Under the pieces are notes generated by a model that ran no database searches, was not told where the DNA came from, and saw only the letters and a program-made list of their open reading frames with translations. A stretch of DNA of 55,858 nucleotides from a virus (taxonomy: Duplodnaviria > Heunggongvirae > Uroviricota > Caudoviricetes). Below are positions 47,316 to 47,630 of this stretch, piece by piece. Positions within the stretch are counted from its first letter, which is position 1; each line of letters begins with the position of its first letter. The translations under genes and the position numbers were made by a program. The stretch is taken from IMG/VR virus record IMGVR_UViG_2660237930_000002; one strand, written 5' to 3'.

Positions 47316-47584
47316 GGTGGTTATCTCCACTTAGTGATTTTAATCACCACCGCAACGCCAATTACTGGTGGTGAACTGGACAAGGTTGGCGTACCGGCCT
47401 AAGTGGTACCGGCGTCCTTTCGGACCCCTGCCCAGCCCACCATAATTCGGATATGGCTGTGCTTAACGCATAAAAAAACCACGTCTGGCGTGGTATGCGC
47501 CACTTAGTAACTCGGGACGCCAATCCCGGCACTGGATTTTGCCAGTACCCGATTACTATGGCACAAGAGGAGTGCGATGTAAAT

Positions 47585-47599
47585 TTACCGCAAAGGTAA
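47585..47599. promoter_or_regulatory. Operator TTACC-gcaaa-GGTAA at the start of the BRO gene leader
   Basis: Perfect palindrome immediately downstream of a predicted -10. Confidence 0.6.
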
Positions 47600-47627
47600 A
47601 TATAAGCACTCCACTTGGTAATTGCAA
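47599..47627 (-). promoter_or_regulatory. Predicted sigma70 promoter of the BRO gene (TTGCAA-17-TATATT)
   Basis: Minus-strand -35 TTGCAA (47622-47627), 17-nt spacer, -10 TATATT (47599-47604). Confidence 0.45.
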
Positions 47628-47630
47628 ACC

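Follow-up and report, generated by a model that had tools for sequence, protein, structure and literature searches.

The locus examined here raises the question of what is encoded in a long gap in front of a phage antirepressor gene. The gap (47316-47630; 315 nt) lies 5' of a gene for a BRO-N antirepressor in IMG/VR virus record IMGVR_UViG_2660237930_000002 (Caudoviricetes), of which the whole stretch of 55,858 nucleotides was analysed and is called the window below. We found that the gap holds an RNA leader on the minus strand, and that this leader is very probably an RNA switch of the P1/P7 immI type, in which a C4 antisense RNA is preceded by an IsrK-like RNA. Family matches, structures, complementarities, covariation and a P1-like layout were observed directly and carry this reading. 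A first-pass annotation had proposed a cis-acting or antisense regulatory RNA in the antirepressor leader; this was borne out by two family matches over threshold and by the covarying pairing described below.

A structured leader with C4 and IsrK-like RNAs

The BRO-N gene is on the minus strand, and the leader was therefore read as the reverse complement. The 293-nt leader had a minimum free energy (MFE) of -115.6 kcal/mol (z = -4.5), and none of 200 dinucleotide shuffles folded equally well. An Rfam scan of both strands returned three matches, all on the minus strand, with no match at E <= 10 on the plus strand of the leader. C4 antisense RNA (RF01695; 47447-47364) scored 66 bits against a gathering score of 45, and isrK (RF01394; 47548-47472) scored 63.5 bits against a gathering score of 50. 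Both also passed a scan of the whole window at the gathering threshold. The third match, c4-a1b1 (RF03163; 47561-47510), was slightly under its cut-off and is considered together with the mechanism.

The IsrK-like short RNA (47472-47548, minus strand) covered positions 1-77 of the 77 of the isrK model and consists of hairpin 1 (47548-47529; 87% paired among homologues, with 6 of 7 pairs compensated), hairpin 2 (47528-47513; 98% paired), the element b1 and an intrinsic terminator. The element a1 (UUGGCGU; 47517-47523) occupies the loop of hairpin 2 and is the exact complement of an element of C4, a', while b1 (CUAAGUGG; 47500-47507) is the exact complement of a second one, b'. The terminator (ACCACG-CCAGA-CGUGGU followed by U7; 47472-47494) was found by a terminator scan and forms the 3' part of the isrK model. 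It begins 5 nt after b1 in the window and likewise in P1, was present at the equivalent position in every homologue and in P1, and is separated from the C4 match by a 24-nt gap.

The C4 match (47364-47447, minus strand) covered positions 1-87 of the 87 of its model without a non-standard pair. Alignment with the annotated 77-nt c4 of P1 predicted a mature RNA of 75 nt (47441-47367), whose MFE fold (-43.1 kcal/mol) has a long closing stem enclosing two hairpins. The closing stem is 16-20 bp long, and among 37 sequences a 16-bp stem was 100% paired, 8 of its pairs being compensated; a conserved AUUAU/GG 5' junction and a CACCACC 3' end stand at the positions of the predicted RNase P excision. 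The element b' (CCACUUAG; 47399-47406), in the loop of C4 hairpin 2, is complementary to b1 and to a further site, b2, and a' (ACGCCAA; 47386-47392), in a single-stranded junction of C4, is complementary to a1 and to a2. Both a2 (UUGGCGU; 47355-47361), 5 nt past the predicted C4 3' end, and b2 (CUAAGUGG; 47327-47334) lie on the antirepressor mRNA, where b2 overlaps the Shine-Dalgarno sequence GGAG (47328-47325) and ends 11 nt before the ATG. Each of the four complementarities between C4 and its targets had a p value of ~0.004-0.017 in shuffled flanks, and all four occurred jointly in 0 of 200,000 shuffles. For testing the b':b2 pairing, an altered form of b' would change CCACUUAG to CCAGUUAG.

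A further element, which we call the anti-arm (GGUGGUGA; 47344-47351, minus strand), is complementary both to the C4 3' arm UCACCACC (47374-47367) and to ACCACC (47321-47316) before the AUG, and the fold of the untranslated region (UTR) pairs it with the latter. It was found as a 5-10 nt complement in 85/85 modules (parsed as described below), with compensated variants in L030, Aaphi23 and P1. The anti-arm, GGUGGU(GA), stands between a2 and b2; pairing with the C4 3' arm puts a2 into a hairpin loop, and the alternative pairing with ACCACC encloses b2 and the Shine-Dalgarno sequence. Its partners co-change, as AGUGG/CCACU in phiV10 and as GUGAUC/GAUCAC in a Klebsiella phage. The anti-arm is possibly a conformational switch.

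The motifs named in the first-pass annotation were all present in the leader, with coordinates that needed correction by 1-10 nt. The segment ccacttag, placed at 47335-47342, lies at 47327-47334 and is b2, and ctaagtgg, placed at 47400-47407, lies at 47399-47406 and is b'. The pair atcaccacc/ggtggtga, assigned to 47357-47385, was located at 47343-47351 and 47367-47374 and corresponds to the anti-arm and the C4 3' arm. The hairpin ccacgtctggcgtgg (ccacg-tctgg-cgtgg), at 47479-47493 rather than 47480-47494, turned out to be the intrinsic terminator of a separate short RNA. The recurring CCACTT(A/G)GT starts at 47327, 47500 and 47611 (listed originally as 47334, 47501 and 47612); the first two copies are b2 and b1, and the third is part of an operator arm and unrelated to them.

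Conservation and covariation of the pairing elements

Leader identity was 99% in phage HEMP4 and ~80% in the epsilon15-like phages phiV10 and TL-2011b. Matches to the leader were found in 241 phage records and in 456 of the 5,426 complete RefSeq E. coli genomes, where the gap is unannotated; E. coli CU532-9 is a 100% match. Among 12 diverse phages, Rfam placed isrK first and C4 about 25 nt later (69 nt in Aaphi23), ahead of an ant, BRO or Rha gene; this set includes VT2-Sakai and other Stx phages, the lambda-like 2H10, a Klebsiella phage, the Gifsy-like Salmonella SW-37 and Aaphi23. Another 120 loci came from searching viral contigs for the C4 5' arm. From all sources, 86 distinct modules were parsed, which contain 9 a' heptamers and 22 b' loops in 34 combinations.

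Helix pairs were counted on an alignment of 37 sequences (MAFFT) that included P1 and Aaphi23. For the a1:a' helix, 95.4% of the cells were paired, with 55 double-change cells and a covariation of 0.54 compared to a shuffled mean of 0.13 (0/500 shuffles); for the a':a2 helix, 99.2% were paired, with 57 double-change cells and a covariation of 0.62 compared to 0.14 (0/500 shuffles). Slid controls for the two helices were paired in only 24-51% of the cells. Comparison across homologues, to which the first-pass annotation had pointed, thus showed that the pairing is kept through compensatory change. The terminator and the two inner C4 hairpins were only 48-55% paired on the same alignment, which is caused by register shifts of MAFFT and, in the window, by a hairpin 1 that is also 2 nt shorter; the Rfam alignment shows the terminator and the inner C4 hairpins intact.

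Counting pairs at a fixed register was unusable for b1, b' and b2 because the loops range between 7 and 12 nt and MAFFT does not keep them in register. A register-free test was used instead, which took, over the 86 modules, the longest stretch of Watson-Crick complementarity that a C4 element shares with a target region. The b' loop matched its cognate downstream region over a mean of 8.6 nt compared to 4.45 nt for non-cognate regions, and its upstream region over 7.3 nt compared to 4.4 nt. The corresponding values for a' were 7.0 nt and 4.2 nt downstream, and 6.8 nt and 4.4 nt upstream. In 72 of the 86 modules, the b' loop matched its own downstream region over at least 8 nt, and the cognate b2 of nearly all homologues adjoins GGAG or GGAGG or overlaps it.

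The a-set (a1, a', a2) and the b-set (b1, b', b2) were found to reassort, with seven b' loops each occurring with 2-4 types of a'. Since the six elements are interleaved on the DNA in the 86 modules, a single crossover cannot swap one set alone.

Two side observations were made on these modules. In the lambdoid/Stx records L006 (452-1600), L008 (573-1595) and L010 (573-1406), coding sequences annotated as 'Rha' or 'Ant' cross the IsrK terminator and C4. In 52 of 85 modules, the frame that opens with the AUG of the C4 5' arm continues into the downstream gene without a stop for more than 100 codons; the start codons of the 'Rha'/'Ant' coding sequences that run through C4 are probably misplaced. 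Moreover, in L106, L119 and L125 the IsrK terminator and C4 are set apart by an insert of ~45 nt (alignment columns 119-155), which contains a TATAAT-like box and could give C4 a promoter of its own in these loci.

Promoters and operator

Two promoter candidates were found on the minus strand. The upstream one, Pa (47599-47627), has a -35 box TTGCAA (47627-47622), a 17-nt spacer and a -10 box TATATT (47604-47599), and matched 9/12 positions in a consensus scan. This is the promoter that had been predicted in the first pass, with an operator at its start: the scan recovered it, the core of an operator palindrome spans its -10/+1 region, and 284 nt separate the -10 box from the ATG at 47315. Pa is the positional analogue of P2c4/P51a of P1, which is likewise controlled by an operator. 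The downstream candidate, Pb (47555-47583), also a scan match, has a -35 box TTTACA (47583-47578), a 17-nt spacer and an extended -10 box TGcCATAGT (47563-47555). Its predicted start is near G47548, and its -10 hexamer CATAGT ends 7 nt before hairpin 1. Every homologue has a -35/-10 pair whose end is 6-7 nt ahead of hairpin 1, and the annotated -10 box of P1c4 in P1 likewise ends 7 nt before it. Because of this matching spacing, Pb probably sets the 5' end of the RNA near 47548, with Pa as a second, upstream promoter.

The operator palindrome (47569-47612) consists of a core TTACC-N5-GGTAA (47585-47599) and the outer arms GGAGTGC (47612-47606) and GCACTCC (47575-47569); phiV10 has a perfect version with 18-bp arms. 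The window holds 10 perfect copies of the core, and 16 with at most one mismatch compared to 1.05 expected. Copies are located at 18482, 18544, 19256, 21543, 25734, 28897, 46505, 47585 and 47965, with near-matches at 19304, 21605 and 25752. Most copies are intergenic and precede genes; some stand on either side of a repressor gene and before a cro-like gene. Judged by their distribution, the palindromes look like P1-style dispersed operators of one repressor. Because copies flank the repressor gene and precede the cro-like gene, the operator in the leader is most likely the own site of the prophage repressor, by analogy to Oc4 for C1 in P1.

The third copy of CCACTTGGT (47611-47619) sits in the outer arm of the palindrome. 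It was considered as a third target of C4 and rejected, as it is unchanged in phiV10 although b', b1 and b2 of phiV10 differ (the C4 b' loop of phiV10 is CCUUUUAG). A tRNA or tmRNA in the leader, an idea that came from a CCA-like end, was rejected as well: ARAGORN gave only a tRNA-Arg (anticodon TCT) at 28498-28574 on the minus strand, which adjoins the operator copy at 28897.

Relation to known RNA switches

From the work of Citron and Schuster, Biere et al. and Hartmann et al. on P1, RNase P is said to excise c4 from its leader, and the excised RNA reportedly pairs with a2 and b2 and blocks translation of the first open reading frame (ORF), after which Rho-dependent termination follows. The c4 RNA is a repressor of Ant synthesis in P1 (PMC8546580; PMC12197685). 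The P1 record (NC_005856) gives the order Oc4, P2c4 and P1c4, a1 (7 nt), b1 (8 nt), c4 (77 nt), a2 (7 nt), b2 (8 nt), icd and ant1/ant2. Compared to P1 immI (RF01695, RF03163), the window has the same order and sizes of the elements (7 nt for a and 8 nt for b) and similar spacings: 7 nt in P1 and 9 nt in the window from a1 to b1, 66 and 58 nt from b1 to the C4 5' end, 3 and 5 nt from the C4 3' end to a2, 22 and 20 nt from a2 to b2, and 10 and 11 nt from b2 to the start codon. The c4 of P1 folds in the same way, with a long closing stem, two hairpins, a b' loop, an a' junction and a CACCACC 3' end, and a terminator-like hairpin with a U run stands between b1 and c4 in P1 (L133, 18231-18312) as in the window. 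The a1/b1 segment of P1 reached 35 bits with isrK, which is under the threshold that the window copy passes.

The two systems differ in several respects. The a'/b' specificity is CUGUCAA / UCACUAAC in P1 and ACGCCAA / CCACUUAG in the window. In P1, icd precedes ant, whereas the window has no icd-like ORF and b2 lies on the ribosome-binding site of the BRO-N antirepressor itself. The TTACC-N5-GGTAA operator of the window serves a different repressor than C1 of P1, and P1 is a plasmid myovirus while the window belongs to an integrated epsilon15-like podovirus prophage.

The isrK-STnc1160/'orf45'-anrP region of Gifsy-1 (RF01394) resembles the window in having a two-hairpin, terminated small RNA, read-through into a structured RNA and then an antirepressor gene. 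IsrK of Gifsy-1 is a small RNA of the Hfq type that is complementary to the downstream RNA; such complementarity is also present in the IsrK-like RNA of the window. In Gifsy-1, antirepressor translation rises more than 100-fold when IsrK is supplied in trans, and a helix that joins IsrK to the downstream RNA is defined by the mutations G28A and G31A together with their partners C162U and C159U (PMC4825925). By spacing and orientation, this helix fits a1:a'. A stable processed RNA, STnc1160, has been described downstream of IsrK (PMC4825925), and both RNAs were found highly expressed in lysogens in another study. In the Gifsy-like SW-37, an isrK-like match (46.2 bits, under the cut-off) is followed by C4 (61.9 bits), which stands at the expected place of STnc1160, with isrJ downstream. 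The Gifsy-1 module is next to the antQ gene, whereas that of the window lies between tail/injection genes and the tailspike gene, and in the published Gifsy-1 model the downstream RNA is not treated as a C4 repressor (PMC4825925).

A likeness was also seen to the CI RNA of P4 (seqA/seqC), which is processed from a leader and pairs with sites up- and downstream so that lytic or anti-immunity genes are off. The CA RNA of N15 is said to share this likeness. Both act mainly by premature termination, whereas b2 of the window covers a ribosome-binding site, and no Rfam match to a family of the P4 CI/N15 CA type was found in the window leader. The seqA element of P4 has been called a structural homologue of IsrK by the authors of the IsrK study (PMC4825925).

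Proposed mechanism and alternative explanations

If the leader works as a P1/P7 immI-type switch, minus-strand transcription would start at one or two promoters beside the operator of the prophage's own repressor. The nascent RNA would fold into two hairpins, with a1 in a loop and b1 just downstream, and most transcripts would end at the terminator (47494-47472) to give the 77-nt IsrK-like RNA. Transcripts that read through would run into the tRNA-like C4 of 75 nt, which would expose b' in a hairpin loop and a' in a junction for pairing with a2 and b2 on the antirepressor mRNA. As b2 overlaps the GGAG ribosome-binding site, C4 bound there would block translation of the antirepressor, with Rho-dependent polarity and mRNA decay as probable consequences. 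Direct occlusion of translation is the simplest reading given that b2 lies on the Shine-Dalgarno sequence of ant itself and that no icd-like ORF intervenes. C4 would thereby keep the prophage repressed and confer sequence-specific immunity. The short a1/b1 RNA has the same two target sequences as the mRNA and could therefore bind a' and b' and lift the block, as IsrK does in Gifsy-1. By analogy, it may counter-regulate C4 as a free decoy, as a lock in cis within the read-through transcript, or also by controlling termination.

Several points weigh against this reading. The c4-a1b1 match was under its threshold (43.4 compared to 46.7 bits, while P1 scores 51.0 bits); the hairpins of this family and a1/b1 themselves are nevertheless present in the window, and positions 1-13 of the model correspond to the promoter -10 box, that is, to conservation of DNA and not of RNA. 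The operator adjoins the -35 box of Pb, which leaves the synthesis of C4 in a lysogen in doubt. For C4 with either target, RNAcofold returned the monomer folds only and no stable complex, as expected for loop-loop kissing contacts, so the energy model lends no support to the pairing. In Gifsy-1, mutations of a1 in cis raised translation (PMC4825925), the opposite of what a simple decoy predicts, and by this analogy the role of a1/b1 may be more complex, for example that of a lock in cis. Finally, we infer that RNase P processes C4, that translation is blocked and that the short RNA acts as a decoy, and likewise which promoter is used.

Among the alternatives, the published Gifsy-1 model taken literally is the strongest, though we consider it unlikely. 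It holds that a1/b1 lock the mRNA in cis through the C4 segment and that the IsrK-like RNA opens it in trans, with ant coupled to orf45, a small upstream ORF that passes through the C4 sequence and has its stop overlapping the antirepressor start, and C4 not a repressor. The isrK family match, the genetic and structural data from Gifsy-1 (PMC4825925) and a strong duplex of -35.9 kcal/mol, predicted for the IsrK-like RNA with the C4 recognition segment, all agree with it. An orf45-like coupling was not found in the window: the frame opened by the AUG of the C4 5' arm has only 14 codons, with a UAG (47401-47399) in the b' loop, and since it ends 84 nt before the ant AUG, such coupling is impossible here. 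Moreover, ant has its own GGAG, overlapped by b2, and the literal model leaves the covariation of a2/b2 with a'/b' unexplained. The authors of the IsrK study themselves noted that the nucleotides of orf45 are conserved and its amino acids are not (PMC4825925), as expected of an RNA gene. Slightly less probable again is attenuation in the style of P4 CI or N15 CA, in which C4 would act on a1/b1 of the nascent RNA to raise termination and so control transcription into ant. The terminator directly after b1 in both the window and P1 is in keeping with it, and attenuation was raised for STnc1160 by the IsrK authors, by analogy to seqA/seqC of P4 CI (PMC4825925). It accounts neither for b2 on the Shine-Dalgarno sequence in nearly all modules nor for the a2/b2 covariation, which is as strict as that of a1/b1, and in Gifsy-1 constitutive STnc1160 left the effect of IsrK undiminished (PMC4825925). 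Attenuation could act as a second layer beside translational repression.

The remaining two explanations carry far less weight. The first-pass annotation had drawn an analogy to both P22 and P1, of which P1/P7 c4 (together with IsrK of Gifsy-1) fits and P22 sar does not. In the immI region of P22 (mnt-arc-ant), sar limits translation of the antirepressor by pairing at the ant ribosome-binding site (PMC12197685) and is a cis-antisense RNA of the opposite strand, whereas the regulator in the window is on the same strand, upstream, and has short complementarities in trans. A sar-type RNA transcribed from the plus strand over the ant ribosome-binding site is therefore highly improbable: the plus strand of the leader does fold better than its shuffles (z = -3.5), as is expected of the complement of a structured RNA, but between 46400 and 48300 it has no promoter-like site and one weak terminator-like site, and the family matches and the U-tailed terminator are all on the minus strand. 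That the gap has no function, being an ordinary long 5' UTR or a small ORF with chance complementarity, is already refuted by the comparative data and retains next to no probability. Mechanical ORFs of 25-100 amino acids do occur on both strands of the leader, but the one of 100 amino acids crosses the U7 terminator and is unannotated in RefSeq, and two curated RNA families over threshold together with strong covariation speak against chance.

Antirepressor gene and prophage context

The antirepressor gene (46605-47315, minus strand; 236 amino acids) starts with the ATG at 47315-47313, and RefSeq annotates the same start. Its product has a Bro-N domain (Pfam, 9.6e-20) and a C-terminal antirepressor domain, and matched the PHROG family phrog_130 ('anti-repressor Ant') at 8e-57. 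The element that carries the leader is an integrated prophage of an epsilon15-like (Uetakevirus) E. coli podovirus, in which the C4/IsrK module is placed between tail/injection genes and the tailspike gene. A gene downstream of ant (46483-46157, minus strand; phrog_10654) has promoter-like sites of its own and a copy of the operator palindrome in the region 46505-46562.

The repressor candidate (18616-19200, minus strand; 194 amino acids) has two helix-turn-helix motifs and no match to a peptidase domain (S24 included), and faces the cro-like gene (19355-19585, plus strand) across an operator-rich gap. From its domain content, this repressor is probably non-cleavable, which fits an induction via antirepressors. 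On the other side of the leader, an ORF of 85 amino acids (47888-47631, minus strand; phrog_450) encodes a free-standing version of the BRO-N antirepressor's C-terminal domain (42% identity). It is preceded by a LexA-box-like site, CTGTATATTTATACAG (47910-47925), and the box is present in phiV10 too; the ORF thus probably encodes an SOS-controlled antirepressor. The prophage therefore seems to have two routes of antirepression, one under SOS control and the other gated by the repressor and by the C4/IsrK RNAs.

Significance

C4 and IsrK RNAs are curated families, found here in the P1 immI layout, and the locus is an unannotated member of a known device. Particular to the member in the window are the ACGCCAA / CCACUUAG specificity, the direct targeting of a BRO-N gene and its occurrence in an epsilon15-like element. 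Two observations go beyond the textbook account, namely that an IsrK-like terminated RNA adjoins C4 at every locus examined, P1 included, and that the a- and b-sets reassort despite being interleaved. In a review of 2025, IsrK and c4 appear as unrelated entries (PMC12197685), and no link between them is made in the IsrK paper either (PMC4825925). We give roughly even odds to a wider proposal, in which the IsrK-like RNA and C4 are the two halves of one universal module (P1 immI, Gifsy-1, Stx-phage, epsilon15-like and Aaphi23), one promoter makes both decoy and repressor, read-through sets the threshold for the antirepressor, and a/b form a two-key barcode. If this is true, the reassortment of a and b would imply that coordinated triple changes have occurred repeatedly, with selection for hetero-immunity among co-resident prophages as the driving force.

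The value of the finding lies mainly in annotation and interpretation, as the module is unannotated in E. coli RefSeq and in phage records. The comparative data join the literatures on P1 c4 and on Salmonella IsrK, which are usually kept apart, and the modules supply natural compensatory variants for studying the specificity of RNA-RNA pairing. For epsilon15-like prophages, including the O157-infecting phiV10 group, the data point to a layered immunity design of the P1 type, in which the repressor has dispersed operators, one antirepressor is gated by RNA and a separate protein with an antirepressor domain is preceded by a LexA box.

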